A stretch of DNA of 64,000 nt from Sulfurimonas sp. (GCA_028689055.1 JAQTWZ010000001.1:106786-170785), one strand, 5' to 3'; shown: positions 3,734-23,035, counted from the stretch's first letter. Numbers and translations: made by a program. The notes: generated by a model not told the origin, from the sequence alone.

Positions 3734-4826
3734 GATTATTTCCCAAGTTATTTTCTGCTTTTTTAATGTCGCTTGTGTTAACAGCCGTGACTTTGTCCCC
3801 ATCGGAGACAAACCCTTGTCCGGTGACAATAATATTTGCTCTTTTTGGAAGGCCGGTCACATAGATTCCTTCAGTTATAGAACTGATGATTTTTGTTTTA
3901 TGGAATGCTACTAATCCTTCCTCAGTAACACTTTTTACACCAACATTTCCTTGCTGATCAAGCGTCAAAAGGCCAGGCGAAATGAAATGTGCCAGTACTT
4001 GGCGTTTTGGAATTTTAGCAATGATACTGGTTCCAGAAGGCTTGCCTTCTGGATTGGAAATTGCAATCTCAATCCGAAATGTTTTAGTTTGTGAATCAGC
4101 ACGCGGTGCGATAAAGCGAATTGTTCCTTCTTTCTTTTCTCCTGTTGTAAATTCTACTTGTGCCATACCGCCAATCATAAGAGCATTGATTTGCTGCTGA
4201 GGCACCGGTACTGTAGCAATAAGAGGATTGTTTTCTATAATCGTGGAAAGCTCGTCTCCCACAGAGACATAATCACCGATTTCAATCTGCTGGATAGAAA
4301 TAATACCAGCAAACGGTGCTTTTATAGAAGTGTTTTTGATATCAACTTTTATCTGCTCTTCATCAGCTAGAGCGCTCTTATACTCAGAGTAGGCCATATC
4401 GATTTTTGTTTTTGCGGTATAACCTTTTTCTCCAAGATTGCGAACTGCTGTATACTTCTGCTTCATTTCAAAGCTTTTTGCTTCTGCTTTGGCAAGTCTT
4501 GCTTTACGGTCTTTCATATCAAGCTGCAAAATAATATTACCCGCTTTAACAGCGGCACCTTCATCAAGTGTTACTTTTTCAATGCTTCCGGCAGTTTCTG
4601 CACGCAGAGTAACTTCTCGATTTGGCATAACATCGCCGTATGTTACGATATAGCTTGTTACCGGTTGTGCCTCTTGCGTTTTAAACTCGACAACTACTTC
4701 ATGAACTTCATGGCGTAGTTGATTATTTTGCTCAGAGGATGTGTCTTTATCTCCTGTCATGCCTATGGCCATCCAGATAGCAATTGCGCCTACTAGGCCG
4801 GTCGCAGTCAGTAAAGATGTTTTCAT
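3720..4826 (-). CDS. RND efflux periplasmic adaptor (membrane fusion protein, HlyD family)
   Basis: N-terminal TM helix, coiled-coil hairpin region (KDRKARLAKAEAKSFEMKQKY), then beta-barrel domains. It lies directly upstream of and overlaps the RND permease. Confidence 0.85.
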   Translation of the reverse strand: MKTSLLTATGLVGAIAIWMAIGMTGDKDTSSEQNNQLRHEVHEVVVEFKTQEAQPVTSYIVTYGDVMPNREVTLRAETAGSIEKVTLDEGAAVKAGNIILQLDMKDRKARLAKAEAKSFEMKQKYTAVRNLGEKGYTAKTKIDMAYSEYKSALADEEQIKVDIKNTSIKAPFAGIISIQQIEIGDYVSVGDELSTIIENNPLIATVPVPQQQINALMIGGMAQVEFTTGEKKEGTIRFIAPRADSQTKTFRIEIAISNPEGKPSGTSIIAKIPKRQVLAHFISPGLLTLDQQGNVGVKSVTEEGLVAFHKTKIISSITEGIYVTGLPKRANIIVTGQGFVSDGDKVTAVNTSDIKKAENNLGNNHEHY

Positions 4827-5374
4827 GAAGTTTTTTCAATCTCGCCGTCGTCAGACTGACGAACAAACCGATTAGCATTTTTTTCCAGAAATTCTTTTTC
4901 TGCTTCCATCATTGTCATGGCGTAATCAACAAGGAAATGGGGGCCAATCCCTGCGTTTAGGCTTTCGTCACTTGTCTGCCAACTATTACATACATTTGTC
5001 CAATGCCCAAGCTCATTCAGCCTCTCAATCATAATTTCTTGCATACGTTCTGAATTGAGTGTATCTGCAAAAAACATTAACAACATAAGTTGTGAACGTA
5101 CTTTGTGCTTAGGTGAAAGATTCTGAAGGCTCTTTGTCCAAACATTTCGTCCCTTTTCCGTCAAACGGTAGATTTTTTTATCCGGGTATTTTTCCTGTTT
5201 TATTATAGTATAGGTAACAAGATTCTCTTGTGATAGATTTTTCAATGCCGGATAGACAGCGTTCGTAGAAACATCCATAAAGTGACCAAAATTCTCCTCT
5301 AATTGTTTTCGGATATCGTATCCAGAAGCATCTCCAAGCGTTAATATTCCAAGGCAGAGCGTTTTTGTGTTCAT
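4823..5374 (-). CDS. PadR-family transcriptional regulator
   Basis: Winged-helix signature GYDIRKQL...AVYPALKNLSQENLVTY..KKIYRLTEKG. It is the first gene of the efflux operon and overlaps the adaptor gene by 4 nt. Confidence 0.8.
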   Translation of the reverse strand: MNTKTLCLGILTLGDASGYDIRKQLEENFGHFMDVSTNAVYPALKNLSQENLVTYTIIKQEKYPDKKIYRLTEKGRNVWTKSLQNLSPKHKVRSQLMLLMFFADTLNSERMQEIMIERLNELGHWTNVCNSWQTSDESLNAGIGPHFLVDYAMTMMEAEKEFLEKNANRFVRQSDDGEIEKTS

Positions 5375-5521
5375 AAATATTCCTTCAAATAGTTTATTTT
5401 GTACTAGTATATAGTATAATAGTATGAAACAGCTTAACTTTCTGTAATAATTTTATTTTTGCATAATTACTAGATAAGAATAGCTTATTTAATTCAGTAT
5501 AAGTGAGTCAAAAATTTCCAA

Positions 5522-5556
5522 TATATAGTACACAACACTACACTGTGTACTATATA
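5522..5556. repeat. 13-bp perfect inverted repeat (TATATAGTACACA / TGTGTACTATATA) with a 9-nt spacer
   Basis: Read directly from the sequence. It lies about 100 nt downstream of the last gene of the hsd operon (minus strand). It could be a terminator hairpin or a protein-binding site. Confidence 0.6.
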
Positions 5557-5654
5557 ATTGAGTAGTGTTCTATTCTGAGGACTCTTTTATGCAAAGTGAT
5601 CAACTGTTCATATTTGACAATAAGTATTTGTTCAATATGTAACATTTAAGACTG

Positions 5655-6323
5655 CTACATAAATAGATCTGGGCCATTATTTTTAAGCCATTCTTTTTTT
5701 TCTATATAACTTGGCATCAAACGCTGCACTTCTCTCCAGAATCGTTCATTATGCGTATGCTCCTTAAAGTGAGCAATTTCGTGAATGATAATATAGTCAA
5801 TGACACCTATCGGCGCCATAGCAATCTTCCAGTTAAAATTTAAAACGCCGTCTTTTGTGCATGAGCCCCAACGGTAACCAAGTTCCATTATCTTATACTC
5901 GGGAAGTTCTAGGTTCAGATTTTTGTTTAAAGATTCCAGCCGTTCTTTGATTTTATCTTTTAAATGTTGCGTGTACCAGATTTTAAAGAGCTCTTTCGCT
6001 TTTGGTTGATATTTTTTGCCGAGGATAAACCAGCCATTTTTTAATTTTAAAGCAGAGTCTTCATCAACAATTTTAAGCCTATAACTTCTTCCCAAATAAT
6101 AAAAGCTCTCACCTGAAATAAACTTTTTTTGAGTGACTTTATCGTTATGCTCTTTTTTGATAGCAAGCTTTTCCCAAATCCATAATCTCTTTTTATAGAC
6201 ATGCTTATCTATTTCATCTTTCTCTAGCTCTTGAGGCGCATTTACAACTATGCTACCATTTCTCTCAACTGTTATGCCAATGCTAGAGCGTTTCGATCGT
6301 ACTAGGTCATAATCAATTAGCAA
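5655..6323 (-). CDS. DUF45/YgjP-like zinc metallopeptidase (M48/WLM-like) commonly linked to hsdR
   Basis: HExxH motif in IIIHEIAHFKEHTHNERFW. Probable TTG start. It overlaps the hsdR stop by 11 nt. Confidence 0.75.
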   Translation of the reverse strand: MLIDYDLVRSKRSSIGITVERNGSIVVNAPQELEKDEIDKHVYKKRLWIWEKLAIKKEHNDKVTQKKFISGESFYYLGRSYRLKIVDEDSALKLKNGWFILGKKYQPKAKELFKIWYTQHLKDKIKERLESLNKNLNLELPEYKIMELGYRWGSCTKDGVLNFNWKIAMAPIGVIDYIIIHEIAHFKEHTHNERFWREVQRLMPSYIEKKEWLKNNGPDLFM

Positions 6324-9300
6324 GCTCTAACCTCTTGAGCGGTTCATTGTTTTCTTTGGTAAGGCTCATATATTTTTCTTTTATATCAGGAATGTTTTTT
6401 ATGAGATTGGTTTGTTTTGAGTTTGCGATAAGACCTATCAAATAGTTCTCAAGATTGTGTCTTGAGTTCTCTCCTGTTGCGCCCCAAAAATCAACTCTTT
6501 TTATCTCTCGTGAAGCTTGTTCTACACTATTTATGACCAAATCAACGATAGTGTCGCATACTAAAGATGTACACTCTTCTGCGCTAAAATAACTCGTAAA
6601 GAGATCATAATAAGGCATACAGACTTCACAGTTAATTTTTTCAAACACCTCGAGTATTTCTCGTCCACCTTGCATCTCTTTTTTAAACTTAGAGAGCTTC
6701 TCAACTAACTTTTCCCATTCGCCTTTATGCTCAGCAATAATCTTTTCAAGTTTTTCCGCAAGAGACTTGTAATAAATCGGATCTTTATCAATATTTATTC
6801 GAATGGTATATCTCAGTGCATGTTCCATCTCAGAAGCAACAGCTTTATCTGGTCTGCCCTTGATTGCATCGCCAAACTCTTCATCAAAGATAGAGATCGG
6901 TCTCACTTTTGTTTCTATCCCTTCGCTAATGAGGTGCTCATCTATAAGTGCTCTTACTTTTGCGCCAAGACCTTCAATATTTAACTCCATATCTCTATAT
7001 CTGCGTTGTACTTCATTTTTAATAAGTCCCAATATCTTCGCATCATCTAAGTAGTATTTTTTAATTGGATTTGGCAAAATGAAATCAATAAGTTTTGTGA
7101 ACTCTTTAAACAGTACCTTAAATTCTTGGCGAAGCTTTTCGTCTGCAAGCAATATAATTGTATCTTCTAAAGTAGCATCACTTATCTCCTCAATCCCTTT
7201 TTCCGTAAAAAATTGCATCGCTTTTCTATGAGAGAGTTCTAACTGTGAAAGCTCGCTACTTTTATCACTCATGATGTCTGCGACATCACCGGCTTCATAG
7301 GATGCAAGAGCATCTTTAAGATGCGCTCCAACACCGTAATAATCAACAATAAGTCCTCTTGTCTTACCCTCATAAGTACGATTTACCCTAGCTATTGCTT
7401 GAAGCAGATTATGCGCTGTCAACTTTTTGTCCAGATACATAACTTGTTCTATCGGTGCATCAAAACCGGTAAGAAGCATATCGCTTACCACCAAAAAAGC
7501 AAGCTGGGACGTTTTTTGCATGTCGTAAATATCATCGCCATCTTTAGCATCATAAGGCGACATGCTAAAAAGTGGCTTTTTAAAATTGACTACGCTTTGC
7601 TCTTTATGCGTTTTTGAACTGTACTCTTTTGGAAACTCGTCTGCGTTATCGTTATGCTGATGAGATATGACAACTGTACTGCTTAACTTACCTACAAGTA
7701 CTTTATAAGGGTTATTGCCGTCCATTTTTTGATGGTACTCTGCTAACGCTTTTGAAATAGCTGTGTTGTAACGAAGTGCTGCTTTTCTTGATGAGCTAAC
7801 AACTTGTGCTTTGTAGCCGTTTGGCAATATATTTTCTACATAGTGTCTTACCATGTCTTTGGCGATGGCTTCTATGCGTTTGGGAGCTTCTAAAATATTG
7901 CCCTTTGTACCGTATTTCTTTTTTATCTGTTCTTGCTGCTCTTTTGCTAAATCTGCAAACAAGTCTTCAAACTTACCGTCAAATTCACCCTTGTTCTCGA
8001 TGGCATCTTTGGAAGTCATTCCCTCATAGATGATGGGAACCGTAGCCCCATCATCTACAGCTTCTCTAATCTTATAAGTGTCAATGTAAGAGCCAAAAGA
8101 ATCTACTGTTTTTTCAACCGGTGTTCCCGTAAAAGCAATCCTTACTGCGTTTGGAAGAGCGGTCCTAAGTGCTGCGCCAAGTTTTGAGTACTGCGTTCGG
8201 TGCGCTTCGTCTATGAGTACAAGTATCTCCTCTTTATCGCTAAGAGATTTAAAAGCCTCATCATCATTGAACTTTTGCATCATAGTCATCGTGATATCAC
8301 TCACATCATTAGAGAGTTTCTTTTTCAAGTCATTCGCACTTATAGCAACCGATATTTTCTCACTAGTAAGTGTCGCAGTATCTTCAAGTTGTTCTTCCAA
8401 ATCACTTCTATCGACTATGAATAAAATTTTATAATTTTGCATCTCTTTTTGATGTCTTGAGTGTTTGATGAGAAAAACCATCGTAAGTGATTTTCCGCTT
8501 CCCTGAGTATGCCAAATAACGCCGTTGCGCTCTTTTACACTCTTAGCCTCAACGATTCGTTTTATAGTCTTCTTAACTGCTCTATACTGCTGATAACGGC
8601 ATACGACCTTTACACGTTTGCGTCCGCTTCCCATGACGATAGTAAAATCTCTCATAATTTCAAGAAGGTTTTGCTTACAGAGCATTCCGGCAACTAAAAT
8701 ATCCTGTTCATCACTGCCGAATTTTTCTAGTGATTCTGGATATGGGTCTTTCCAACTAAGATAATGCTCTAATTTTGAGCTGATAGTGCCGGATTTTGCT
8801 TGTGTTCTTGAGGAAGTTACCACGAAGGCATTGGTATTGAAAAGTTTAGAAGCACCTTCGGCCTGTTCAGTTCCTCTTGTGTTCATATACCTTTTAAGTT
8901 GATTGACCGCTTCTGCCATCGGGTCTGTTATATCGGGAGCTTTACACTCGACAACAACCAAGGGGATGCCGTTTACGAAAAGTGTAATATCTGGAATGAT
9001 AGTCTGAGCACCATCGACCATAAACTGTGAAATTGCCAAAAAGTCATTGTTTTTTATATTTTCAAAGTCTATATATCGTACCGTAGGAGATTTTGCACCT
9101 GTGTCATGGTTGAGATCCACCGATGTATTTTCAAGCAAGAGTTCGCTACATGCGAGATTGTTTTCAAAAAGAGAAGATTTGTTGATGTTTTCTAAGGTAG
9201 CTATGACCTCCTTTACCTGCTCATCTTTGAGCCATGAGCCGTTGATTCTTTTTATGGCAGATGAGAGTTTATCTTTTAATAGTACCTCTTTAAAGCTAGT

Positions 9301-9435
9301 TCTATTTAAAAGAGCTTTATCGGTTCTATGTTTATTATCCGCGTCTTCTACAACTAAAGTGTCCCATTCAAGCACTTTTAATTGCTCTAAAAATTTCTCT
9401 TCAACATACTTCGCTTCTCGTATCCAACTGCTCAT
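6313..9435 (-). CDS. hsdR: Type I restriction endonuclease subunit R
   Basis: Helicase motif I WHTQGSGKSLTM and DEAH box LIDEAHRTQY, with an N-terminal nuclease region (VVVECKAP). The preferred start is MSSWIREAKY at 9435, which forms an ATGA overlap with the upstream stop. Confidence 0.93.
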   Translation of the reverse strand: MSSWIREAKYVEEKFLEQLKVLEWDTLVVEDADNKHRTDKALLNRTSFKEVLLKDKLSSAIKRINGSWLKDEQVKEVIATLENINKSSLFENNLACSELLLENTSVDLNHDTGAKSPTVRYIDFENIKNNDFLAISQFMVDGAQTIIPDITLFVNGIPLVVVECKAPDITDPMAEAVNQLKRYMNTRGTEQAEGASKLFNTNAFVVTSSRTQAKSGTISSKLEHYLSWKDPYPESLEKFGSDEQDILVAGMLCKQNLLEIMRDFTIVMGSGRKRVKVVCRYQQYRAVKKTIKRIVEAKSVKERNGVIWHTQGSGKSLTMVFLIKHSRHQKEMQNYKILFIVDRSDLEEQLEDTATLTSEKISVAISANDLKKKLSNDVSDITMTMMQKFNDDEAFKSLSDKEEILVLIDEAHRTQYSKLGAALRTALPNAVRIAFTGTPVEKTVDSFGSYIDTYKIREAVDDGATVPIIYEGMTSKDAIENKGEFDGKFEDLFADLAKEQQEQIKKKYGTKGNILEAPKRIEAIAKDMVRHYVENILPNGYKAQVVSSSRKAALRYNTAISKALAEYHQKMDGNNPYKVLVGKLSSTVVISHQHNDNADEFPKEYSSKTHKEQSVVNFKKPLFSMSPYDAKDGDDIYDMQKTSQLAFLVVSDMLLTGFDAPIEQVMYLDKKLTAHNLLQAIARVNRTYEGKTRGLIVDYYGVGAHLKDALASYEAGDVADIMSDKSSELSQLELSHRKAMQFFTEKGIEEISDATLEDTIILLADEKLRQEFKVLFKEFTKLIDFILPNPIKKYYLDDAKILGLIKNEVQRRYRDMELNIEGLGAKVRALIDEHLISEGIETKVRPISIFDEEFGDAIKGRPDKAVASEMEHALRYTIRINIDKDPIYYKSLAEKLEKIIAEHKGEWEKLVEKLSKFKKEMQGGREILEVFEKINCEVCMPYYDLFTSYFSAEECTSLVCDTIVDLVINSVEQASREIKRVDFWGATGENSRHNLENYLIGLIANSKQTNLIKNIPDIKEKYMSLTKENNEPLKRLELAN

Positions 9436-10778
9436 TTCATAATCTCCCAATGTCCGCCTTTGGCACCGCCGACTCTGTCTATATAACCGTTTTCTTTTAA
9501 TGATTTAATATGTTTTTCTATAGCCGTTGTACTAATGTCGAGTTCTTCAGCCATTTTTGTAATTGCAATTTTTGGATTATTCTGCATGAGCTTCATAATA
9601 GCCTGCTGCGTTTCACCCAACTTTTCACCCAACTTTTCACCCAACCCATTTTCAACTTTTTCACCCAAGTCATTAAAATAAAACTCCACCCATAAACCAT
9701 TTTGCCATCTGAAGTTTGGTGTGATGCCATTGAACTTTTGTGACTCTTCTATGATTTTCTCAATCCCTCTTCCCCAAGACTCTATATATCCAGCCAAGAA
9801 AAAAGGATACGCAATAGCAGGGTTAAAAGGTTCCGATGAGTGTTTATGTTTGAGCGTTTCTAGCGTCCATTGTGTCGGTAATTCTCCGGCATTCCACATG
9901 AGCAACTTATCGTCATACACACTTATTTGGATGCTGTTTTGTGAGGCATAGTCTTTATGCACAACCGCATTAACAAGAGCCTCCCGAAATGCAAGTTCAG
10001 AAACAGGAAAACTCTCTACTCTTTGAACCCCTTCATAAGTGATAATCGCTTTGAGATATTTTGTGAAAATCAAGTCCATGGTTTTATCCACTTGAGCAAA
10101 TAAGTTTCCTTCCACTTGGTCTTGATACACAAGGTCACTATCGGATTTAAAGTATCCTATTTTTATAGTGCTTCCTGTTACATACTTTTGTGGGTCTTTA
10201 GAAAAAAGCAGCGTTGTCGCGCGTTTGAGATAATCGCCCTCTCTTAGGTGAAGCTTATCGACGAGCGTCTCATCACTCTCTTTTAAAAGTTCTGCATCTA
10301 TTCTTTTTTTCTTGTTTGCTTTTTCACGAAATAGCTCTATGGCATAATGATCCAAATCTTTGAAGCCAAAATACGGAACAGGCACACCATCCCATTTCTT
10401 GCCTTGTTTTCTCAAAAGAAACTTATCAAGTGCGGCACCCTTTAGCTCTTGAGTACTGCTTCCGCTTCTGTAGTAGTACGAACCTTTGTAGCTGATAGGA
10501 TACGGATAGTTTTCAGTGATGATTTCAAGATACTCTTTGCCGTTTTCCACATGCCGATTCACATCAACCATCACACCCAAAATATCTCTGACTTTGTTCG
10601 GTATGTCTTCAAGTAGTTTTTTAGCGTTCTCGATTCCAACGATTGCGCCGTCGTCTTCTACCCCGATGTAAATCGTACCACCGTCACTATTTGCAAAAGC
10701 ACAAACCCATTTGATGTAATCATCTTTCCATAATCGTTTAAATTCAATGGTTTGGGATTCATTAATATCAAGGTTCAT
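9432..10778 (-). CDS. AlbA_2 (Schlafen-like) / HATPase_c_4 / C-terminal wHTH protein (COG2865-type putative regulator)
   Basis: N-terminal ESQTIEFKR...FANSDGGTIYIGVEDDG (AlbA_2 signature) and C-terminal HTH KIAITKMAEELDISTTAIEKHIKSLKENGYIDR. Confidence 0.75.
   Translation of the reverse strand: MNLDINESQTIEFKRLWKDDYIKWVCAFANSDGGTIYIGVEDDGAIVGIENAKKLLEDIPNKVRDILGVMVDVNRHVENGKEYLEIITENYPYPISYKGSYYYRSGSSTQELKGAALDKFLLRKQGKKWDGVPVPYFGFKDLDHYAIELFREKANKKKRIDAELLKESDETLVDKLHLREGDYLKRATTLLFSKDPQKYVTGSTIKIGYFKSDSDLVYQDQVEGNLFAQVDKTMDLIFTKYLKAIITYEGVQRVESFPVSELAFREALVNAVVHKDYASQNSIQISVYDDKLLMWNAGELPTQWTLETLKHKHSSEPFNPAIAYPFFLAGYIESWGRGIEKIIEESQKFNGITPNFRWQNGLWVEFYFNDLGEKVENGLGEKLGEKLGETQQAIMKLMQNNPKIAITKMAEELDISTTAIEKHIKSLKENGYIDRVGGAKGGHWEIMK
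9611..9668. repeat. In-frame 12-nt tandem repeat (TTTTCACCCAAC, about 3 full copies plus degenerate copies) encoding (LGEK)n
   Basis: Read directly. It encodes GEKVENGLGEKLGEKLGET in the linker before the C-terminal HTH of the AlbA_2 protein. Confidence 0.8.
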
Positions 10779-12571
10779 CTATTTTTACCTTTTTTATATA
10801 ATTCTTCTTCAATTTCTTCTTCTTTTTCTTTAAGATTTCTTTGAATATAACTCATTCTAGCACGAGCTTCTTGCACAAGTTCTTGATAACTCATAGATAT
10901 GGTTCTTATTGGTCCAGAAGTAGTTTCTCTTTGTATTCCTTCTTCATATTCTGAACCAACTATGTAAACATTAAAAAAAGCCTCTTTAGTAAAAGTTTTT
11001 TTAACAACACTTGCATAACGCTCACCCTGAGCTTTATTTTCAAATGTAATTGCTTGTCCTGGCTTTTTTAATTCTAATATAAGAAATTCATTTCTCATTA
11101 AAATATTTTCTTGCATTTTTATGAACAAATCTGGTCGTTTTGAAGAATGATGACCACTATATGAACTATCTAAAATATTTTGTGAAATAGTTTTTAAACT
11201 TTTATTCGATATAAACCACTCATATCTTTCATCAACAATCCAAATATTTTCTGCAAGCACCTTATGAGTACCTTGCAATTCAAGTGTTTTTGGATCATTA
11301 ACCATCTGTTCAAACGCATCAAGAACTTCAAATCGCTGTTGTAATATTGTCAAAACATCAGCTACTTCCTTTATCCCCCACTGCTGTAAAGCTGCAGCTA
11401 ATTTTGTTATATCTTCATGACGAGCTTCATTAAGTCTTTTTAATATTTCATATACTTCATGTTGTTCATACGATTTCAAAGATAGTTCCATAACAGTTTT
11501 TATCAGATCTTTCTTATTGTATTTGATAGTTTTTATTGATTCTTTGATAGTGTTTTCTGCTGCTTTTCTAGTAAAGCTTGGTAAACTTTCTATGCGATGT
11601 TTATACTCTGGAATAGCCATATTTTTTTTGAACTCTTCCTCTACATCTGTATTGATTTGTAGCTCTACCTCTTCCATTAAAATATTTCGTATTTTTTCTT
11701 TCAACTCTCTTGTTATCTCATTATCTAAAATAGAATCCCAACCTGCAGTAAAATTTACACCTTCTAAATCAGTTAAATCTAGTTCACCATAAATATGTTC
11801 TGCTATTTCCTTTGGTAATTTTGCACCAAAAACATTAGTATCTCCTATAGCCCTATCATTAAATTTTAATTGTATTCCATAATCATTAAGTTTATCAACT
11901 GCATTGATAATCCAACCATTTATATCTTGACCAGCGATATTAATTGAAAATTCATGCTTCTCCCCAATAATCTCTTTAGTTTGGAGTTTTTCACCATTAA
12001 TATAAATTTCAAAATCATCATGCAAACCAAAATTGGATAATAATTTCTGTTTTAGGGTGTCAATAGGTATATCTAACTGTGAAATGTCAACTATAATGAT
12101 AAGTACAGAACTATTTTTTGAAGTTTGTTCCGTTTGTATGTTAATATTGATGTCATTAATATCTTTTTGCTTTTTTATCTCATCATGAGATAATTCAAAC
12201 TTATGTTGTATATTATTTTTAATTACCGTATATTTTAACTTTTTACCAAGTTTAAAACCGGACAATCTACCAATGCCTTTATTGCCTTTTCTTTTTCGGC
12301 CATTTGGTGATGTAGGGGGCTGAGAAGAAACACTAATATTAAAAAATCTATTTTTCAACTCGTCCATGTCCATGCCATGACCATTGTCTTCAAATGTGAT
12401 TACTCGTTCTTCCAACTTATCACTAGATAATGATATTTTTATATCTACCCTACTTGCATCGGCATCATAACTATTTGCAACAAGTTCAACAAAAGGCTGA
12501 TATATATCTTTATATATTTCATCACTTAGTAATTTAAAGATATTTGAATCTGCATGAAAATTTTGAGTCAT
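10775..12571 (-). CDS. GHKL-type ATPase (HATPase_c_3-like) fused to a C-terminal PD-(D/E)xK, Shedu/DUF4263-like nuclease motif
   Basis: Bergerat-fold boxes: ELVANSYDA (aa 29-37), FEDNGHGMD (aa 60-68), GNKGIGRLSGF (aa 96-106). C-terminus: ENIWIVDERYEW...SKRPDLFIK...FLILELKKPG (D481, E500, K502). Confidence 0.7.
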   Translation of the reverse strand: MTQNFHADSNIFKLLSDEIYKDIYQPFVELVANSYDADASRVDIKISLSSDKLEERVITFEDNGHGMDMDELKNRFFNISVSSQPPTSPNGRKRKGNKGIGRLSGFKLGKKLKYTVIKNNIQHKFELSHDEIKKQKDINDININIQTEQTSKNSSVLIIIVDISQLDIPIDTLKQKLLSNFGLHDDFEIYINGEKLQTKEIIGEKHEFSINIAGQDINGWIINAVDKLNDYGIQLKFNDRAIGDTNVFGAKLPKEIAEHIYGELDLTDLEGVNFTAGWDSILDNEITRELKEKIRNILMEEVELQINTDVEEEFKKNMAIPEYKHRIESLPSFTRKAAENTIKESIKTIKYNKKDLIKTVMELSLKSYEQHEVYEILKRLNEARHEDITKLAAALQQWGIKEVADVLTILQQRFEVLDAFEQMVNDPKTLELQGTHKVLAENIWIVDERYEWFISNKSLKTISQNILDSSYSGHHSSKRPDLFIKMQENILMRNEFLILELKKPGQAITFENKAQGERYASVVKKTFTKEAFFNVYIVGSEYEEGIQRETTSGPIRTISMSYQELVQEARARMSYIQRNLKEKEEEIEEELYKKGKNR

Positions 12572-12579
12572 TTCTTTCC

Positions 12580-15501
12580 TTAGTTATTTTTATTATTATT
12601 TTTACATTTAAAAATGCGATCTTCCACTTCATCTTTATCAAAATCAGGAGGAGTAGGCTTAAAACTTTTATCATCCTTTTGTAACTCATACTCTAATACT
12701 TGAAATTCACGTAACTTGGCAATATCTAATTTTGTTGTTAAAATTGTTGCATTATTTCCACCCTTAATCTTTATAAGGTCTTTAATATCTGTTCTAGATG
12801 GTTGATGTACTCTATTATCACCATATTTTGCGTCATTAGATTGTATAAAGTAACAATGTAAATCTCTTGCACTAGATTCGATAATATTTGAAAAGTATGA
12901 TGTATCTTTATTAAACTCACTAGCTACAATAAAATCAACCTTAGATTTAAAAAGTGCTCTTGCATGAATATCGGTTAATTCATAACAATTAAAGGTTGTA
13001 AATGAAAGATTTTTCCATAGATACTTATGATAACTTTTTCTTTCATATTCTGGAATTTTATATCTATATCCTTCTAAAATACGTTTTTCCTCTGGTGAAT
13101 AATTATTTTTTAATCTGAAGTCAACAATTAAAGAATTGTATTTACCCATTTTAATTGGTAATAGAGTGACAATAATGTTATATGCTTTATTACCTGATAT
13201 TATATGTTCCATGCCAAATACCATTGCGAGCTGATTTTTATTTGCGTTGTCAATAATCCAGCTTAACCAATTTAATGGAATTGAACATTCTGGTAAGACT
13301 AATAAGTCAACAGATTCTTTTACACTTTGATTAATAAGCTCTTGAATTTCAGTTTTTCTTTGATGTGAAGGTTTTGGATTTCTAATATATTCTTTACTAA
13401 AAATAGTTTCATCAATCCTAATATTTGCCAAAGCTATGTTTAATGATTTTTTGCAATCATCTTCATTGATAGTAATTGAATAAATATGATGATTATTAGG
13501 ATTCACATTTTCATCAATAGCATCAATAGCATCAACAATTCCTAATTTTTTTTCTTTTTTACAATGCTGATAGTTATAGCATTCAAATAATTTTTTAGAT
13601 TTGTTTAATACAGACTCAGCACTTGTTATATTATTACCAAGGATATTTTCTTCAATCCTATATAGGTACTCTAAAATTGATATTTCATGTAAATGAATAA
13701 ATCGTGAAGGATAATTACATGTTTCTTGCAGTTTTGAAATTTTATCTGGTTCTATAAAATCAAGATAAGGTACCGTATTAAATGCTTCTACAAAATTCAG
13801 TATAGAATACTTCATATAACTTTTACGCGTTAAGTCGGCATTTCTTATTTGAAGTATTTTATCAATACTAGGTAGTAACTTTTTAATTTTTTCCGCAGCT
13901 TTTTCAACTATAGAATCTATGAAATATTGAGGACGCAGTGCAGCTGCAGAACTGATTGCGATAGATAAATGTATCAAAAAATCTTCAGCGATTTTTTTAT
14001 CTTTTACTGGTAGTTTTTTTAATGCCAGCTCAATATTTTTAATAAATTTATAGAAACTATTACGATCTTTAGTGATAATAAAATATGTGAATATTTTTTC
14101 CCATAATGTGTAATATTCTAAAGATTTTTTTTCTTTAAAAAATTGTAAAATTTGGGTAGAAGTTGCTTGATCAACTTTACTTTTCATTTGAAGACTTAAA
14201 AATATTTTTTTAGCTAAAAATGAAGAAATAGTAAACCTGTCCTCTTGGAATTCTTTAATGCTTCTTAGTTTATTCACTGAACCGTCATAAATAATTTTAA
14301 TTGTAGATTCTTCAAAACTTTCATTGGCTAAATCTTCATCAGGCAAGAATCTATATTCGCTACTTGATCTTCGAATTTCTTTTACAAATCGATCAAGCAT
14401 TGACAAAGAACTCTTATGATCAAAAAACATTACTGATATTTTGCTATTTTGAATAGTAAGATTACTATATTGTTCAGCTGCTAATTTATAAAGAATATCA
14501 CCATCTTTTTTAGCTATGTTGTCACAACTCTCACATCTAAGTATATTTGTATCAAGAAAGTATTTCTTTATAACTTCCTCAGTTTTTGTATACTTACTTG
14601 AACTATCCACACAAATCGTAAGCAATATATCATCAACATATCTACCATAAAACAAAGGATTTATCTCTTTCTTAGCTAATAGATCAAAATCCCGTAAATA
14701 ATAATTTGCAAGTACTCCAGATGATAAAAAACCAATAGGTAAAATTGGTTTTTTATCATGCTTTTTTAATATTTTTTTTGTATAAAAATCATGGATTGCA
14801 AACAATAATGATGTTAGTGGATTTGCTTTACTGTAAGTACCTATAGTTTTCAGAAGGTTTTCTTCATTTAGTTCAATTGAATGATAATAGTCTTTAATAT
14901 CTAATCCAATTAGTAATGTATTTTTCTTTTCTTCAATAATATTTTTTGCGGTTTGAATAGACTTATCACGCCATTTTTGATACTCTTCATAGTATGGCTT
15001 AAATAATCTTAGCCCATTTACAATTTCACCTTCAGAATCTAATTCTAGTTTATAACCATATAAATCTTCTTGCCCTTTTTGTAATACATAACCTTCTCTC
15101 ATAATCCATAAAACTGTAATTATATGAATCTCGATTGGAGCATTGACAAATTGAATTTCTCTTTTAACTTCAATTTTTTCATTACTTACTACATTGCTAA
15201 GTAGGCTGTCTTTTAATTCTTCATCTTTTTCATAACTCTTTGGAAGAGACCAAAAACTCATCTGCTTTAAAAGATTATTCATATAAGTATTTAATGATTT
15301 TATTGACTCATGATCTCTATTAATAATATCCTCTAATACTATTTGTAGTTCTTCAAATTTATACTCAAAATCTGTTGATTCAAATTCTGCAAGCTGTTCT
15401 CTAAGAAAAAGATTACTGTTATCATAATAAACATAATGCTTTAATTTTTTATAAGCATTTTGAATTTCATTTAATTCTATTTTTAATTTTAATGTACTCA
15501 T
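12580..15501 (-). CDS. Reverse transcriptase fused to a C-N hydrolase (nitrilase-superfamily) domain; DRT type 1 / UG-class-1-like defence RT
   Basis: RT motif A LIGLDIKDYYHSI (D201), motif B ILPIGFLSSGVLANYYLRDFD, motif C FYGRYVDDILLT (YVDD 288-291). A helical region of about 300 aa follows. The C-terminal putative E-K-C triad is LVLPECS (E738), FRLKNNYSPEE (K798), TTFNCYELTD (C839). Confidence 0.8.
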   Translation of the reverse strand: MSTLKLKIELNEIQNAYKKLKHYVYYDNSNLFLREQLAEFESTDFEYKFEELQIVLEDIINRDHESIKSLNTYMNNLLKQMSFWSLPKSYEKDEELKDSLLSNVVSNEKIEVKREIQFVNAPIEIHIITVLWIMREGYVLQKGQEDLYGYKLELDSEGEIVNGLRLFKPYYEEYQKWRDKSIQTAKNIIEEKKNTLLIGLDIKDYYHSIELNEENLLKTIGTYSKANPLTSLLFAIHDFYTKKILKKHDKKPILPIGFLSSGVLANYYLRDFDLLAKKEINPLFYGRYVDDILLTICVDSSSKYTKTEEVIKKYFLDTNILRCESCDNIAKKDGDILYKLAAEQYSNLTIQNSKISVMFFDHKSSLSMLDRFVKEIRRSSSEYRFLPDEDLANESFEESTIKIIYDGSVNKLRSIKEFQEDRFTISSFLAKKIFLSLQMKSKVDQATSTQILQFFKEKKSLEYYTLWEKIFTYFIITKDRNSFYKFIKNIELALKKLPVKDKKIAEDFLIHLSIAISSAAALRPQYFIDSIVEKAAEKIKKLLPSIDKILQIRNADLTRKSYMKYSILNFVEAFNTVPYLDFIEPDKISKLQETCNYPSRFIHLHEISILEYLYRIEENILGNNITSAESVLNKSKKLFECYNYQHCKKEKKLGIVDAIDAIDENVNPNNHHIYSITINEDDCKKSLNIALANIRIDETIFSKEYIRNPKPSHQRKTEIQELINQSVKESVDLLVLPECSIPLNWLSWIIDNANKNQLAMVFGMEHIISGNKAYNIIVTLLPIKMGKYNSLIVDFRLKNNYSPEEKRILEGYRYKIPEYERKSYHKYLWKNLSFTTFNCYELTDIHARALFKSKVDFIVASEFNKDTSYFSNIIESSARDLHCYFIQSNDAKYGDNRVHQPSRTDIKDLIKIKGGNNATILTTKLDIAKLREFQVLEYELQKDDKSFKPTPPDFDKDEVEDRIFKCKNNNKNN

Positions 15502-16724
15502 CTAACCCTCACATTCCCGCTAAGTAAATCATTCATCAAGCCTTTTTTTAGCTCTTTTAGTTTGGCTAGGTTAGCTTCTTCTTTTTCGATTTTTTTATCT
15601 TGAGTGGTTAGGATTTTCGCAGTCTTTTTTTGTTCTTCGATATCTAGTGGACAAGGTAAAAGCAATTTTGAAAAGGATGATTTATTTACAATCGGTACAG
15701 CTTGTAATCCAGCTTCTGTATCCAATTGTCTTTGTAAAAATTGGTTCATGGCATAAAATACAAATCCATAATAATATTTTTTGTTACACATCAAAGCATT
15801 TATTTGTTGATTTGTACAACATTGTTTTATGGTTAAAGCTATTTTCCCAATTGTTGAGCCTATGCATACCGTTAGAATTGCTTTTTCAGAAATTTCTCTT
15901 GAATATTTAAGACCCTCTTGTGATACAGTTTTTTCAGTTTTTACAATATATTTTTGTCCCTTAAAGTCCACTGGACCGATGAAAGGCACATTACCATTGT
16001 AAAATTCTTCATTATCTGTTGAAGGAGTGTTTCCCGTAACTACATTTCCAACTTCTTCTAAACTCACAACCTCCCACTCCTCAGGGATGAGCCCTAATTC
16101 ACTTTGTTTGTATTTATGTGTTTGTGGGGTGCGGATTTTGTTGTTTTTGTCTATGCCGTTGGTTAGCAAGTCGTGCATCAAGCCTTTTTTGATATTTTTT
16201 TCTTTATCGATGAGTTTTGCGGTTGACTCTATAGTTTTATCAAGAGTTGAGAGGACTTTGGCTATTTTTTGCTGTTCTTTTATTTCTTTTGGATATTTAA
16301 TCAATAATTTACCAAAATCATTTTTGCTTATTGCTAGAAATGTGCTTCCTTGAGCTAATCTATCTAATTGAACCTTTTCTTGAAATAAAGAATAAAATCC
16401 GAACTCATTATCTAACTTTGTTATTGTAAGTGCGGCTAAACCTCTTCCAATACAATAACTTTTGTCAGCTAAATTCATATCACCGACAGGTGCTCTAACA
16501 CTAATAAGAATATCACCTTGTTTAGCTATCTTTTTAGGTACGGTAACCCAATATAATTCCATGGGATTTATATTTCCGAACTCTGCATTACCTTGCAAAA
16601 ATGGTATCCCATCCTGACTTTCATTTACAAATTCAGAATCAGGAGATTGCCCCATATTAATGCTTGCTAAAGCTGAAAAAGGTTTTACTTCCCACCCCTC
16701 GGGCACATTCATAACTTCGCTCAT
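15498..16724 (-). CDS. hsdS: Type I R-M specificity subunit S
   Basis: Two target-recognition halves, each followed by a conserved helix ([17 protein letters not shown] and [17 protein letters not shown]). The preferred start is [13 protein letters not shown] at 16724 (ATGA overlap with the hsdM stop), not the track's 16820. Confidence 0.9.
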
Positions 16725-18940
16725 AGATACCCAAGCTCTGCTAAAAACTCTTTTATCTCTGCGGTTGATTCGTCGCGCTCTTTTTCTATCTGCTCTAAAC
16801 TTACTTGGTATTTGTCCCAAAGGTTTTCTGTGCTTTTTATGATGGCTTGTTTTTTCTCATTTAGGTATCTGTTTGCTATTTCAAGTGCATCGGTTTTTAG
16901 CTGTTGTACTACAAAGGGTTTCACATCTGCGATGTTTTCAAATATTTGCTCTTTTATTTGAGCGATTTTTTCTCTTATGACGACTCTGTCGTTTTCTTCT
17001 TTGGCAGATTTTAGTTTTTTGAGAAGCTCCATATACTTGGCATGTGGAAGGTGCGCTTCTTCAGCAAGTGTATCTACAAACGCGCTGCTGCTCAAAAACT
17101 TCTCGCTTAAAAGATTGTAGTCGTAACCGCTGTTTTTTATGGACTTGATTGTAAATTTATTTTCAACCCACCATGAAGCGAAAATGCCTCGTATCTTAAA
17201 TCTGTCTATCACTTCATGGCTTGTTGACGTAAACGCTTTTTCTATGAGAGCATAGCCCTCAACATAGAGTGTGGCGATGTTGCTGCTCTTTTCATCCACA
17301 AGTGTTTGATAGCCATCGTGCCATGTGGAAACTATGCCAAGCACCATTGCATCCGTCTTTTTAAAACCCTCCGAAGCTTCTAACACTTCTCTTATGTTTT
17401 GTTTTTCTTGTATGGTCTGTATAAATTCATAGTAGTTTTCATCTTTGGTTTGAAAAATATCGCTCGGAGTCAGCATGTAGTTAGCCATCAAAGGGGCGTT
17501 CCACTCGCACTTTGGAATGCCGCCCTTGAGATGCGCTTTGACATCGTGAGGTTCTGCCGGGGGAGTGTTGTCTACATAGCGTCTTATGTTTAGGTTGAAA
17601 CCCTCTTTTTCCAACTCTTCTATGCTTACAAGCTTGGAGTAGTTTACAAGCTCAAGAGTGTTTTGATACGCAAAGTTGATTTTTTCTATATCTTCGGCTC
17701 TAAGATTGTTTTGGTTTTTCCCCTCTTTGTACTCTGCGTCTGCGTTTATAAAAAGGATTTTGTCATCTTTTTTGGCTTTGTTGATGATGAGCAGAGAAGC
17801 AGGAATGCCCGTGCCGTAAAACAGCCCCGATGGCAAGCCTATCACCGCTTCAAGAATGCCGAGTTCTTTGATGAGATGCTTTCTAAATTCACCCTCGACA
17901 CTCCCGCGAAAGAGCACTCCATGCGGCATAACCACACCCATTTTACCACTGCTTTTAAGTGAGGCTATCATATGCTGGACAAACATATAATCGCCTTTTT
18001 TGCCACCCTCAGGCATAAAGTGAGAAAATCTCTCTTTGAAAGTCATGTCGGATTTTTTGTAGTTTTGAGAAAAAGGCGGGTTGGCTATAACTCTGTCAAA
18101 CTGCATCAACTGCCCATCTTTTGTGTGGAGCGGTTTTTCTAGCGTGTCTTCGTTCTTTATGTCTGCATTTGATATGCCGTGCAAAATCATATTCATCTTG
18201 CACATCGCCCAAGTGGTCGCTATGGCATCTTGCCCGTTAAGCGAAAAGTCGTTTGAGTTATAAATCTCTTTGATGTGCTCTTTTGCCTGAATGAGCATAC
18301 CACCGCTTCCCACCGTAGGGTCGTAAATGCTCATGCCGGGTTTTGGGTCGAGGATTTTTACCAGAAGTGTCACCACTCCGCTTGGCGTGTAAAACTCTCC
18401 CGCTTTTTTGCCCGCACTATCTGCAAAATACTTTATGAGATACTCATACGCCGCACCTAAGAGGTCGGGAAATTCAAAATCCTCATCCCTGAGACGAATC
18501 TTATCAAAGTGCTGAAGGAGTTGTTGGAGTTTTGCATCGGAGATTTTAGAGTTGCCGACTTTTTTGTTAAAGTCTATATGCTTGAGTACATCTTCTAGGG
18601 ATGAAAGATTGGCTTCTTCTATGGCAGAGAGTGCTATGTTTAGGTTTTCACCTATGTTTTTTTTGAGGTGTCTGAGGGTTTCCCATTTTGCATTTTGAGG
18701 GATGGTAAAAGTAAATTTATGATTTGCTAAAAGTATCTCTATGGTGGCATCGTCATGTCCATCTTTTTTGTAGCTGTCTCTTACTCTGTTGTACTCTACA
18801 TCGTACTGGTCTGAGAGCCGTTTGAGAAAAAGCATACCGAAAATATACTCTTTAAACTCACTCGCCTCCATCTTGCCGCGAAGTATGTCAGCGGCTGAAA
18901 AAAGGTGTTGTTCTAGTTGAGAAAGGGTGAGTTTTTGCAT
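16721..18940 (-). CDS. hsdM: Type I R-M N6-adenine DNA methyltransferase subunit M (with a long C-terminal extension)
   Basis: AdoMet motif [12 protein letters not shown] and catalytic VIANPPFS. N-terminal HsdM_N-like region [14 protein letters not shown]. At 739 aa it is longer than the roughly 520 aa I would expect. Confidence 0.93.
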
Positions 18941-19199: not shown

Positions 19200-19844
19200 T
19201 TATACTATATTTAATTTTAACTTTACTTCTTCAAATAAAGCATCAAATTCTTGGTCAGCCTTAGAAAAGATACGAAACTCTTTTATGCTTTTTCCGACAC
19301 CTATAGAGTTTGCTATATCAACACGCTGTCTTATAACGGAAGTCATAAGTTCAAAGTGTTCTGACATACAAATGAACTCTATCAAGTCACCGAAGTTTTT
19401 CATTGCCGGATTGAGATTGTTAAATAGAACATTTGTTTTAATAGTCTCTTTTTGTATTTCCGAAAGTGATTTCAGTATCTCTTCATATTTTTGTAATCCC
19501 ATTAGATCAAAGGGTTTGTCTGAAACAGGAGTAATGAGTAAATCTGAGCCGACAATTGCAACTCTATTAAACGCACTGTCAAATCCACCAGAGTCAATGA
19601 TGGTCAATGCGTTTGGCTTGTCATTTTCAATGTGCAAAGCAAGCTCACCTGCGTTACTGACATGTTTGATAGTTAGAGGATCTAAACCTTGGGACTTTCT
19701 GATTTGATTTGTTTGCGTTAATGACTGCTGAGTATCTAGGTCAATAATTGTGGTCGGCAGGTGTTTTGAAAAGTGAACAGCCAAATTCCAAGCTATTGTC
19801 GACTTTCCAACACCACCTTTTTGATGAGAGACAGCTAATATCAT
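19200..19844 (-). CDS. parA: ParA/Soj-family partition ATPase
   Basis: Deviant Walker A SHQKGGVGKSTIAWNLA, then IIDLDTQQS and IIDSGG. Confidence 0.85.
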   Translation of the reverse strand: MILAVSHQKGGVGKSTIAWNLAVHFSKHLPTTIIDLDTQQSLTQTNQIRKSQGLDPLTIKHVSNAGELALHIENDKPNALTIIDSGGFDSAFNRVAIVGSDLLITPVSDKPFDLMGLQKYEEILKSLSEIQKETIKTNVLFNNLNPAMKNFGDLIEFICMSEHFELMTSVIRQRVDIANSIGVGKSIKEFRIFSKADQEFDALFEEVKLKLNIV

Positions 19845-19894
19845 ATATACTCTTTATATTTTTAAGATATAAAAAGTATATACTTTATATACTT
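19844..19894. repeat. TATATACT[TC] iterons upstream of parA (three copies, two in tandem; a fourth copy at 19184-19192)
   Basis: Read directly: 19844-19852 TATATACTC; 19877-19885 and 19886-19894 TATATACTT. 19874-19885 forms the 12-bp palindrome AAGTATATACTT. Confidence 0.55.
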
Positions 19895-20300
19895 AATGTT
19901 TACGAGAAAAATTTATAATAAGCTGATGAGCTATGAATAGTTCGGGCCAAATTATCCATTGTCTGTCACTTTGCTCATCTGCACTTTGGTAATAGACACC
20001 AAGCATCAGTGCTTTAAATGTCAATGTTTCTTTGTTTTGACTATCGATAAATATGTATCCTTCTTGAATAAACAAATTGACTAGGTGTGATCGCCTAATT
20101 TTATGTGAATTTGCAAGGGTTGATGTGGAAACATAACCCTTTTTTGTAATTTTAGAGCTTCTTCTTCTTTTTGCTATTTTTTGATAAATTTTTCTATTGA
20201 CAAGATTTGGATAAATGTTGAATTTATGTAACAAGATCAATTTCAATAAATAGAATTTTATAAAAAATTTAATAAGAAACAGTTGCATTTTAATCTCCAT
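19893..20300 (-). CDS. Hypothetical protein
   Basis: ORF only. Its N-terminal 30 aa look non-genic, so the true start may be internal. I recognise no motif. Confidence 0.35.
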   Translation of the reverse strand: MEIKMQLFLIKFFIKFYLLKLILLHKFNIYPNLVNRKIYQKIAKRRRSSKITKKGYVSTSTLANSHKIRRSHLVNLFIQEGYIFIDSQNKETLTFKALMLGVYYQSADEQSDRQWIIWPELFIAHQLIINFSRKH

Positions 20301-20769
20301 TTTTTAAAAATTTGTAAAAATTAGAAACGAGTGTGTGTGAGACTTCTAATCTATGGAATTTAAGTAAATATTGGGAGATTTTTCTAAAAGACAGTTTTTC
20401 TTTTTCTCTCAACTCTAAAATCACATTTTGGATATTCAGCAATTTATCAAACTTATCTCTTTGCTTGTAATTTTGCATCATTTTACTCCTTATTTTTGTG
20501 GGATTTTTAACATTTTTTATGTCATCAGTTCTATTTTTTTTATGAACATTTTTTGCTAAATTATAAATTTCAACGACAGCTTTAACATAGGAAGCCGCGC
20601 CAAGTAAGGATAAATCTAAATCAGAATGTTTACTTTTTAGTTGGAAAAAGTAATTTTTTTGTAATTTAAATATCTCAAGCATTACCTCAAAATGTTGTCT
20701 GCACGCCCACCGGCATGCAGTTTGAAATTCTTTTTCAGAAACCCTTGTGATTTTAATGATCTCTCTCAT
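20290..20769 (-). CDS. Hypothetical protein with a possible C-terminal HTH
   Basis: The ORF overlaps both neighbours. LSFRKISQYLLKFHRLEVSHTLVSNFYKF is HTH-like. Confidence 0.45.
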   Translation of the reverse strand: MREIIKITRVSEKEFQTACRWACRQHFEVMLEIFKLQKNYFFQLKSKHSDLDLSLLGAASYVKAVVEIYNLAKNVHKKNRTDDIKNVKNPTKIRSKMMQNYKQRDKFDKLLNIQNVILELREKEKLSFRKISQYLLKFHRLEVSHTLVSNFYKFLKNGD

Positions 20770-21008
20770 AAACTTACCTTCATTTTGTTTGAGATGATGT
20801 ATTCAGCGACATCATCAATTGAAAACTCTACTGTTGCATTTTTTGCTTCTCCAGCTTTTGAATATGCTAAGCCAAAGCCATTTTTTTGGCGTCTGTCCAG
20901 GGTACTTGTCGATATGTTGAGGATCTCTGCAACTTGAGTTCTGCTTAAAACTAGTGTTTTGTATTTTGCCTCGATTCTGTCTTCCATATGTTTTTGTTTT
21001 TCTTGCAT
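20766..21008 (-). CDS. Small HTH DNA-binding protein (excisionase/AlpA/Cro-like position)
   Basis: LSRTQVAEILNISTSTLDRRQKNG helix-turn-helix. It is the first gene transcribed leftward from the divergent control region. Confidence 0.6.
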   Translation of the reverse strand: MQEKQKHMEDRIEAKYKTLVLSRTQVAEILNISTSTLDRRQKNGFGLAYSKAGEAKNATVEFSIDDVAEYIISNKMKVSL

Positions 21009-21107
21009 TAATACCTCCAGGTATAATTAATTTTTATCAAGTGACGTCATTTTGATATTTAAAATGTATCAAATCAAAAAGAATATTTTTAGTAAGTAAA
21101 GATTTTC

Positions 21108-21136
21108 TTGACTTATAGATTTATAATACTTATAAT
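21108..21136 (+). promoter_or_regulatory. Sigma-70-like promoter TTGACT-17 nt-TATAAT for the XRE repressor gene
   Basis: TTGACT at 21108-21113 and TATAAT at 21131-21136 with a 17-nt spacer (counted). The ATG lies at 21183. Confidence 0.45.
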
Positions 21137-21182
21137 TCAATTAGTGTAAAGGAAATCTTTACTTTATAAATATGGGGAATAT

Positions 21183-21854: not shown

Positions 21855-22227
21855 ATTGTCTTAAAATAGCTCCACCAGAACCAACCATGTAGCATCTATC
21901 AAAAGTGCATAAAGTGCAATCAATGTTGCAGAAGTAAAGCGTATCCACTGTCTGACTGAAAAGAGAAGTCCAAACTTTGTTGGGCTCCTCCTCTTGACAA
22001 CTATTAATCGCAAAGAGAAGCTCCTCTTTTTTGAAATACTCTTTGTAAATAACCCATCCATTTTGTTGGCGTACATAATAAAATTTTTTATTTCTCATAA
22101 AGTCTTGACAGATCATAATTACTGAAAGAAACAATATTGCAATTTGCAATATTGTTTGAATGACTTGGTCGTTACCACTATTTTTGATGGCTTTCAGTTG
22201 TCTTATGGTATTTGCTATAAGGACCAA
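21841..22227 (-). CDS. Small membrane protein, paralog family member A
   Basis: TM helix VIQTILQIAILFLSVIMIC and shared motif C..(n)..YYVRQQNGWVIYKEYFKKEELLFAINSC. Confidence 0.5.
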   Translation of the reverse strand: MVLIANTIRQLKAIKNSGNDQVIQTILQIAILFLSVIMICQDFMRNKKFYYVRQQNGWVIYKEYFKKEELLFAINSCQEEEPNKVWTSLFSQTVDTLYFCNIDCTLCTFDRCYMVGSGGAILRQSKMK

Positions 22228-22278
22228 ACCTACGATGACAATGAGATAATCTATTATCTGCTTTTTTTATTGCCTTCT

Positions 22279-23034: not shown

Positions 23035-23035
23035 C

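Follow-up and report, generated by a model that had tools for sequence, protein, structure and literature searches.

A GHKL-ATPase/PD-(D/E)xK nuclease as a probable autonomous paraMORC3/type I-D Shedu cargo gene in a type I restriction-modification operon of Sulfurimonas sp.

When two putative defence genes lie side by side in one operon, do they act as a single system or do they only share a transcript? The question is raised by a contig of Sulfurimonas sp., of which a stretch of 64,000 nucleotides (GCA_028689055.1 JAQTWZ010000001.1:106786-170785, hereafter the window) was analyzed. It carries a gene for a GHKL ATPase with a nuclease-like C-terminus (10775..12571, minus strand, 598 amino acids (aa); supported by the open reading frame (ORF), the HATPase_c_3 match and an AlphaFold2 (AF2) model), preceded by a gene for a UG5-large reverse transcriptase (RT)-nitrilase (12580..15501, minus strand, 973 aa). 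The initial annotation had proposed that both form one effector/sensor module, a candidate undescribed two-gene variant of the defence-associated reverse transcriptases (DRT). Our analysis favours a different reading, to which we assign a probability of roughly 0.75: the GHKL protein is a defence nuclease of the paraMORC3/type I-D Shedu kind that acts by itself, and its gene and that of the RT-nitrilase are independent cargo in a slot of a type I restriction-modification (R-M) operon.

The protein is a GHKL ATPase with a MORC-like middle region and a C-terminal PD-(D/E)xK nuclease. Its N-terminal Bergerat-fold ATP-binding domain (residues 1–150, 12122..12571, minus strand) was recognized by Pfam HATPase_c_3 (E = 7e-20, 71.8 bits versus a cutoff of 25), by residue conservation and by Foldseek, and the ATP motifs were found at the residues where they had been annotated: E29LVAN33SYD36A (motif I), D62NG64HG66MD (motif II) and G96NKG99IG101RLSGF (motif III). 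Residues E29, N33, D36, D62, G64, G96, G99 and G101 were invariant in an alignment of 29 homologues (19–75% identity) and at least 90% conserved in 71 full-length representatives of the wider family (16–29% identity). Three further segments follow on the same strand, namely a beta-rich S5/transducer-like domain (residues 151–283, 11723..12121; Foldseek span and strand-rich DSSP assignment), a long helical linker (residues 284–425, 11297..11722; AF2 model, with low confidence for residues 374–401), and a PD-(D/E)xK nuclease domain with a C-terminal helix (residues 426–598, 10778..11296; invariant columns, Pfam, AF2 and Foldseek). The nuclease residues of the initial annotation (D481, E500 and K502) were upheld by both alignments: W444, R479-P-D481, E500-L-K502, Q515 and Y519 were invariant among the 29 homologues, and E431, W444, D481, E500, K502, Q515 and Y519 among the 71 representatives, a conservation of the C-terminal block that is far beyond chance.

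Predicted structures agree with this division. The AF2 model of the full protein reached a mean pLDDT (predicted local distance difference test) of 78, and Foldseek matched it best to PDB entries of TRAP1/Hsp90 and of MORC2, MORC3 and MORC4 ATPase modules (E from 1e-14 to 1e-13); the alignments to the MORC2/MORC3 modules and to the N-terminal plus middle domains of TRAP1 extended over approximately 365–385 columns with a template modelling score (normalized to the target) of 0.5–0.58 and covered the GHKL plus the S5-like transducer domain. Modelled alone, the last 194 residues (pLDDT 81) adopted the strand-strand-helix-strand core found in PD-(D/E)xK enzymes, and their Foldseek matches were for the most part nucleases with this fold (FokI, NucS/EndoMS with probability 0.99, MspJI, McrC, SgrAI and DdmD), all of them weak (E ≥ 7e-3), thus supporting a generic PD-(D/E)xK fold and not permitting a placement within Shedu. 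A search of PDB sequences with a profile of the C-terminal domain returned two spurious matches only. When 15 C-terminal domains of the family were compared with Pfam, the sub-threshold matches (HSDR_N_2 in 10 of the 15, VRR_NUC in 7, SduA_C in 5, HSDR_N in 3 and NucS_C in 1) all fell into one clan; the nuclease families closest to the protein belong to the Shedu/HsdR-N/VRR-NUC/NucS clan.

The family as a whole is large. A profile of the nuclease domain recovered 2,726 clusters at 50% identity, most of them approximately 590–670 aa long and ending in this domain, so that the GHKL-nuclease architecture is a frequent one; a scan of genome contigs with the family alignment gave at least 600 matches, those listed being 19–37% identical (≤ 26% at full length) and hence informative on the broad family, not on the close clade. 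HATPase_c_3 was present in 68 of the 71 representatives, while SduA_C was the only nuclease family in Pfam to recur (16/71; E = 1.7e-5 at best to 5e-4, under its 27-bit cutoff), and the PADLOC SduA model matched nine. The best curated model for the whole window protein was NCBIfam BbrUII/HgiDII (NF050001; E = 5e-37 in two stretches), a model that also matched 69 of the 71 representatives. The Campylobacterota clade of the window protein constitutes a single 50%-identity representative, 16–29% identical to all the others. For the protein itself PADLOC gave a weak REase_II match confined to the GHKL part (residues 10–163) and Pfam gave HATPase_c_3 only; on plasmids, tblastn found only genes of 21–38% identity, annotated as 'ATP-binding protein'. 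The models in use for defence annotation (Pfam SduA_C, PADLOC SduA) therefore miss this divergent clade.

How well does this architecture correspond to proteins already described? ParaMORC3 was defined by Iyer, Abhiman and Aravind (2008) as GHKL plus S5 plus a C-terminal restriction endonuclease fold with an E-D-ExK signature, sporadic in distribution and found in R-M neighbourhoods or solitary (PMC2292703), in agreement with the earlier remark that MORC/paraMORC-type ATPases recur near R-M genes. All the defining features are present here (intact ATP motifs, an S5/transducer-like domain in the predicted model with pLDDT 78, and the E-D-ExK C-terminus), with the difference that the window protein belongs to a divergent Campylobacterota clade and that paraMORC3 itself was delimited by computation only. 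The type 1D Shedu proteins comprise a class with HATPase_c_3 and an Hsp90/MORC-like middle domain, and 602 of 5,499 Shedu genes are embedded in R-M systems, type I included (Gu et al. 2025, 10.1101/2023.08.10.552793). VcSduA, encoded on the Vibrio cholerae island VSP-II with the same GHKL-middle-nuclease arrangement, defends as a single gene, functions when expressed alone in Escherichia coli, loses its activity in the E27A (ATPase) and K557A (nuclease) mutants and protects in a non-abortive manner; its authors equate VcSduA-like proteins with paraMORC3 (Adams et al. 2025, PMC12137116). The invariant E29 and K502 of the window protein are the presumed counterparts of these two residues. The window protein shares with VcSduA and the type I-D Shedu proteins the three-part single polypeptide and its place as defence-island cargo, although VcSduA adjoins GrwAB whereas the present gene lies inside an hsd operon. 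Since it has the features of paraMORC3 while the thresholds of the DUF4263 hidden Markov models are not reached, we place the protein, as a divergent member, with the paraMORC3/Shedu I-D proteins and do not regard it as a certified DUF4263 protein. The earlier label 'Shedu/DUF4263-like' is thus borne out for clan and architecture, and fails at the SduA_C and PADLOC SduA thresholds.

By analogy with MORC, Hsp90 and MutL ATPases and with VcSduA, ATP binding at the N-terminal GHKL domains would make the protein dimerise, its middle part (S5-like and helical) would close on DNA as a clamp, and an ATP-dependent conformational change would license the C-terminal PD-(D/E)xK domains (D481, E500, K502) to cut, with direct cleavage of invading DNA and survival of the host as the presumed outcome. 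DNA as the substrate and an anti-phage function are presumed in the same way, as is some means of sparing self DNA.

If the protein were one half of a pair, its partner should be expected to travel with it, and a survey for a conserved RT-nitrilase neighbour had been suggested, with a lack of co-occurrence as the outcome that would speak against the proposal. When it was run, the two genes stood side by side in the window and otherwise in a single twin contig representing the same locus (L089, HsdS-RT-GHKL; RT 94%, GHKL 97% identity). Eight other distinct contexts with close GHKL homologues (58–75% identity) lacked an RT-nitrilase beside them. At 75% identity, the gene followed GlnD/ABM and was followed by an AlbA_2 gene and an FGGY kinase (L183); at 74%, the order was HsdM-HsdS-GHKL-AlbA_2 (L090); at 73%, HsdR-M-S-AAA_21-336aa-GHKL-AlbA_2 (L092); at 71%, HsdR-M-S-AAA_15-GHKL-AlbA_2 (L095); and at 70%, HsdM-S-199aa-GHKL-388aa-308aa-DUF4325-PIN-SLFN598-HsdR-YgjP (L081). 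The remaining three were an integrase-bearing locus with 407aa-GHKL-AAA_21-294aa (L084, 65%), a GHKL-DUF6119 pair (L184, 59%) and methylase-414aa-GHKL-MBL-Res (L087, 58%). Among the matches listed, an RT-nitrilase was present in one of 173 loci with a GHKL match (the twin) and at none of approximately 160 loci with distant relatives.

The reverse comparison gave the same result. Relatives of the RT-nitrilase occurred in five contexts without an adjacent GHKL gene: HsdS-RT-SLFN598-HsdR (L100, 74%), HsdM-S-382aa-RT-Fic-HsdR-YgjP (L101, 46%), Abi_2-RT-140aa (L102, 45%), and two loci at 33% and 32% identity (L098, L099), while a scan of metagenome contigs with the RT-nitrilase recovered two distant loci only. 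The loci L081 and L100 have a common hsd backbone (HsdM 91% and SLFN598 93% identical), yet L081 has the GHKL gene but no RT and L100 has the RT but no GHKL gene, hence the two genes assort independently. Outside R-M operons (L084, L183 and L184) the GHKL gene is preceded by an intergenic gap of 126–423 nt, which indicates that it heads its own transcription unit there. Both the upstream and the downstream genes vary among the nine close contexts, and even the recurrent AlbA_2 gene is missing from four of them; by this measure, i.e., the lack of a conserved partner, the nuclease behaves as an autonomous single gene.

What does remain constant is the frame into which the gene is set. The operon consists of seven tightly packed minus-strand genes (HsdM-HsdS-RT-nitrilase-GHKL-AlbA_2-HsdR-YgjP), in which the GC content at third codon positions (GC3) amounts to 0.153 for the RT-nitrilase and 0.174 for the GHKL gene versus 0.381 for AlbA_2, 0.342 for HsdR and 0.451 for HsdM; a low-GC3 middle against a higher-GC3 backbone was likewise found in L081, L087, L090, L092, L095, L100 and L101. 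RT-nitrilase and GHKL nuclease are low-GC cargo of a variable slot that, in Campylobacterota type I R-M operons, lies between hsdS and a gene for an AlbA_2/winged helix-turn-helix (wHTH) protein (window 9432-16724; L081 9362-14820; L100 1734-4646; L185 4770-9017; L186 7300-8994). The cargo seen so far comprises the GHKL nuclease, the UG5 RT-nitrilase, PIN with DUF4325, Fic, AAA_21 pairs, a KAP NTPase, and SLATT with DUF87. Type I R-M operons are known to harbour independent defence genes, namely PrrC, TgvAB on VPI-2 of V. cholerae, and the cassettes described as 'guilt by embedding' (PMC11411939; 10.1101/2024.01.29.577857), and the present slot shares with them the cassettes between hsd genes that are swapped among otherwise similar operons. 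It differs in that two unrelated cassettes stand side by side and that in several Campylobacterota operons the AlbA_2/wHTH gene bounds the slot downstream.

Several observations weigh against an autonomous Shedu-type nuclease, some concerning its placement and others its independence. The window protein had no match to SduA_C (PF14082) even at E ≤ 10, HSDR_N_2 being its only C-terminal signal (E = 0.056), and none to PADLOC SduA; a Foldseek search of the PDB with the model of its C-terminal domain gave no match at E ≤ 1e-3, and its top 50 included no solved Shedu structure. The DUF4263 assignment consequently rests on sub-threshold signals within the family and on the equation of paraMORC3 with Shedu I-D in the literature. 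With regard to context, sampling was limited, as a large share of the metagenome contigs are short and some close homologues may have escaped the scan of reference genomes. The GC3 values of RT-nitrilase and GHKL gene are nearly identical and the twin contains both genes, which may therefore have entered the operon jointly. Six of the nine distinct close contexts are inside R-M operons, which could reflect a functional dependence on R-M. Finally, in five contexts (window, L090, L092, L095 and L183) the gene immediately downstream of the GHKL gene is that of the AlbA_2/wHTH protein (447–455 aa).

This last recurrence underlies the alternative that survives best, in which the GHKL nuclease and the downstream AlbA_2 (Schlafen-like)/HATPase_c_4/winged-HTH protein (9432..10778, minus strand, 448 aa; identified by Pfam and by its neighbourhoods) form a two-gene module, with the latter as a DNA/RNA-binding sensor or transcriptional regulator. 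The two genes overlap by ATGA in four of the five contexts (window 10775-10778; pairs at L183 3131-6279, L092 10001-13128 and L095 10001-13128) and are separated by a 2-nt gap in the fifth (L090 6855-10003). In L183 the pair stands between housekeeping genes, with no R-M system, in L090 it occurs without HsdR, and in slots with several genes the GHKL gene is always the last cargo gene, beside AlbA_2. On the other hand, the putative partner is absent from the homologues at 70, 65, 59 and 58% identity, where a 388–390-aa ORF (L081), an AAA_21 ATPase, DUF6119 or an MBL-fold hydrolase takes its place, and among the matches listed no distant GHKL relative has an AlbA_2 neighbour. On the Arcobacter plasmids CP146529 and NZ_CP099557, which have the same operon frame, AlbA_2 genes that are 78% and 71% identical to that of the window directly precede HsdR, with SLATT plus DUF87 or a KAP NTPase as cargo and no GHKL gene. 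The AlbA_2 proteins fall into two lineages that share approximately 55% identity, and their pattern of identities does not match that of the GHKL proteins (e.g., L090 and L092 share 91% in GHKL versus 56% in AlbA_2), while the GC3 of the window AlbA_2 gene (0.38) fits the hsd backbone and not the GHKL gene (0.17). We consider such a module unlikely. A broader version, in which AlbA_2 would serve different, interchangeable cargo effectors (GHKL, UG5 RT-nitrilase, KAP NTPase, SLATT plus DUF87) as a common sensor or regulator and link them to type I R-M, and GHKL-AlbA_2 would then be an undescribed two-gene Shedu variant, is more doubtful still, and the recurrence of the AlbA_2/wHTH gene beside the nuclease is best taken as a modest lead.

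Two simpler descriptions of AlbA_2 were considered and set aside: that of a true partner of the GHKL nuclease, as each gene occurs without the other at similar divergence and their identity matrices disagree, and that of a pure hsd backbone gene, as suggested by GC3 and the Arcobacter plasmids, because L183 and L090 have the pair without HsdR. Two observations on the neighbourhoods may be added. In L090, HsdM-HsdS-GHKL-AlbA_2 (3856-10003) is not accompanied by HsdR anywhere on the 17-kb contig and is flanked by toxin-antitoxin and housekeeping genes, so that either an R-M system has decayed here or the M and S subunits have been retained alongside another nuclease. In L087 (11802-12851), L184 (3293-5062) and L084 (11791-13458), the GHKL stop codon is abutted or overlapped by the gene for an MBL-fold hydrolase, DUF6119 and an AAA_21 ATPase, respectively; these different downstream genes may represent plain compaction or interchangeable partners.

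A dependence on the R-M systems themselves, i.e., a methylation-sensitive endonuclease for which the resident methyltransferase (HsdM/S) provides self-protection, as a C5 methyltransferase does for the BbrUII/HgiDII type II restriction endonucleases, is highly improbable. These enzymes (NF050001; PADLOC REase_II, PDLC03419) have the same overall architecture as the window protein, the BbrUII/HgiDII model matches nearly the whole family, the close contexts inside R-M operons place the gene after methylase genes, and in L090 it follows HsdM and HsdS with HsdR lacking. Among distant full-length relatives (20–26% identity; L004-L038, L066, L108, L137, L173), 24 of 40 loci have an upstream ORF of ~340 aa with the C5 motif FCGAGG, and 12 of 40 have a Vsr-like ORF of ~140 aa downstream, both calls being made by motif and read by eye; within the family, the relatives so flanked are the BbrUII/HgiDII branch of type II R-M. 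The window protein, by contrast, falls with 127.7 bits far short of the 550-bit cutoff of that model, neither the window gene nor any close homologue has a C5 methyltransferase next to it, no Vsr gene stands beside it in the window, and L084, L183 and L184 have no R-M system within reach. The host systems are moreover unrelated (HsdM identities of 24–31%; L087 is type III-like), a range of specificities that one nuclease could hardly read, and VcSduA works alone in E. coli (PMC12137116). Methylase dependence is therefore unlikely, given that the clade of the window lacks C5/Vsr partners and is hosted by R-M systems from unrelated families.

The pairing proposed at the outset, with RT-nitrilase and GHKL nuclease as sensor and effector joined by coupled translation, is hardly credible, for its supports (the close spacing of the genes, their common very low GC3, their retention in the twin and the fact that no paper was found to name nitrilase, reverse transcriptase and GHKL together) are confined to a single lineage and stand against the missing partners in eight GHKL and five RT contexts and at the distant loci, the independent assortment in L081 and L100, defence by each protein class alone in published experiments, and operon junctions that are all at least as tight as the one in question. 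The spacing itself was described correctly: on the minus strand the junction reads AAT AAC TAA GGAAAGAA ATG, with the 8-nt spacer GGAAAGAA (12572..12579, minus strand, from the junction sequence) between the RT-nitrilase stop and the GHKL start codon, and a Shine-Dalgarno-like AAGGA that covers part of the RT stop codon. Four of the five other junctions in the operon (HsdM/HsdS, HsdS/RT, GHKL/AlbA_2 and AlbA_2/HsdR) are 4-nt ATGA overlaps if the likely ATG starts are taken, and RT-to-GHKL is the loosest of these four and itself; the spacing is hence a mark of the operon and not of the pair, and reflects operon packing, not a shared mechanism.

The RT-nitrilase is a separate UG5-large (DRT11-type) gene and not a part of the GHKL system. 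It matched PADLOC RT_UG5-nitrilase (PDLC03780; E = 4e-227, residues 7–962) and RVT_1 (E = 1.9e-9), its nitrilase part matched RTasNitrilase (E = 7e-29, residues 714–956), and its translation has the RT motif YVDD and the nitrilase motif PE...CYE. No gene for a transmembrane partner follows it, the next gene being that of the soluble GHKL protein; such a partner is found in 31 of 299 UG5-large members and is not required in DRT11 (PMC13436386; PMC9226505). Of the characterized systems, DRT11 of Sinorhizobium meliloti is a UG5-large RT-nitrilase that defends alone (PMC13436386), and in the E. coli E101 system one defends together with a transmembrane partner (PMC13436386; PMC9226505). The window gene resembles DRT11 in its full-length UG5-nitrilase match, the YVDD and nitrilase Cys residues and the missing transmembrane partner, and differs from DRT11 and E101 in being lodged between hsdS and a second cargo gene of a type I R-M operon, its own defence function being predicted. 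The novelty claimed for the two-gene module is lost as well, since both genes are of kinds already described as autonomous (PMC13436386; PMC2292703; 10.1101/2023.08.10.552793; PMC12137116).

With the GHKL gene as an autonomous nuclease, the locus reads as three stacked, independent defences (type I R-M, UG5 RT-nitrilase and paraMORC3/Shedu I-D nuclease) and not as a new RT-based system, and its slot offers a clean natural example of defence cassettes swapped within near-identical hsd operons. The significance is otherwise small and mainly a matter of annotation, as pipelines would label this clade of GHKL nucleases 'ATP-binding protein' only.

The rest of the operon consists of the type I R-M genes and a peptidase gene. 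HsdM (16721..18940; N6_Mtase 3e-101, HsdM_N) and HsdS (15498..16724; Methylase_S 4e-44 in two stretches, and the junction sequence) precede the cargo, HsdR (6313..9435; HSDR_N, SWI2_SNF2, ResIII and T1R_D3-like) and a YgjP/SprT-like metallopeptidase (5655..6323; YgjP-like 2e-57) follow it, all on the minus strand, and YgjP is the usual last gene in hsd operons of this type, with the same place in L081, L101, L185 and L186. The mechanical ORF starts of HsdS (TTG at 16820) and HsdR (TTG at 9450) probably overextend both genes at the 5' end; the likely ATG codons at 16724 and 9435, respectively, each create an ATGA overlap with the preceding gene. In the region around the operon, Rfam and tRNA scans gave no match, and promoter and terminator scans gave background level only. 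A ParA-like gene adjoins the hsd operon (19200-19844, minus), followed by genes for an HTH_3 regulator (21183-21854, plus), a HipA toxin (26946-28097, plus), a tyrosine integrase (28207-29481, minus) and an AAA_14 ATPase (29351-30592, minus), with many small unannotated ORFs among them (window 19200-30592); the presence of these mobile-element genes beside the operon suggests an integrative island.

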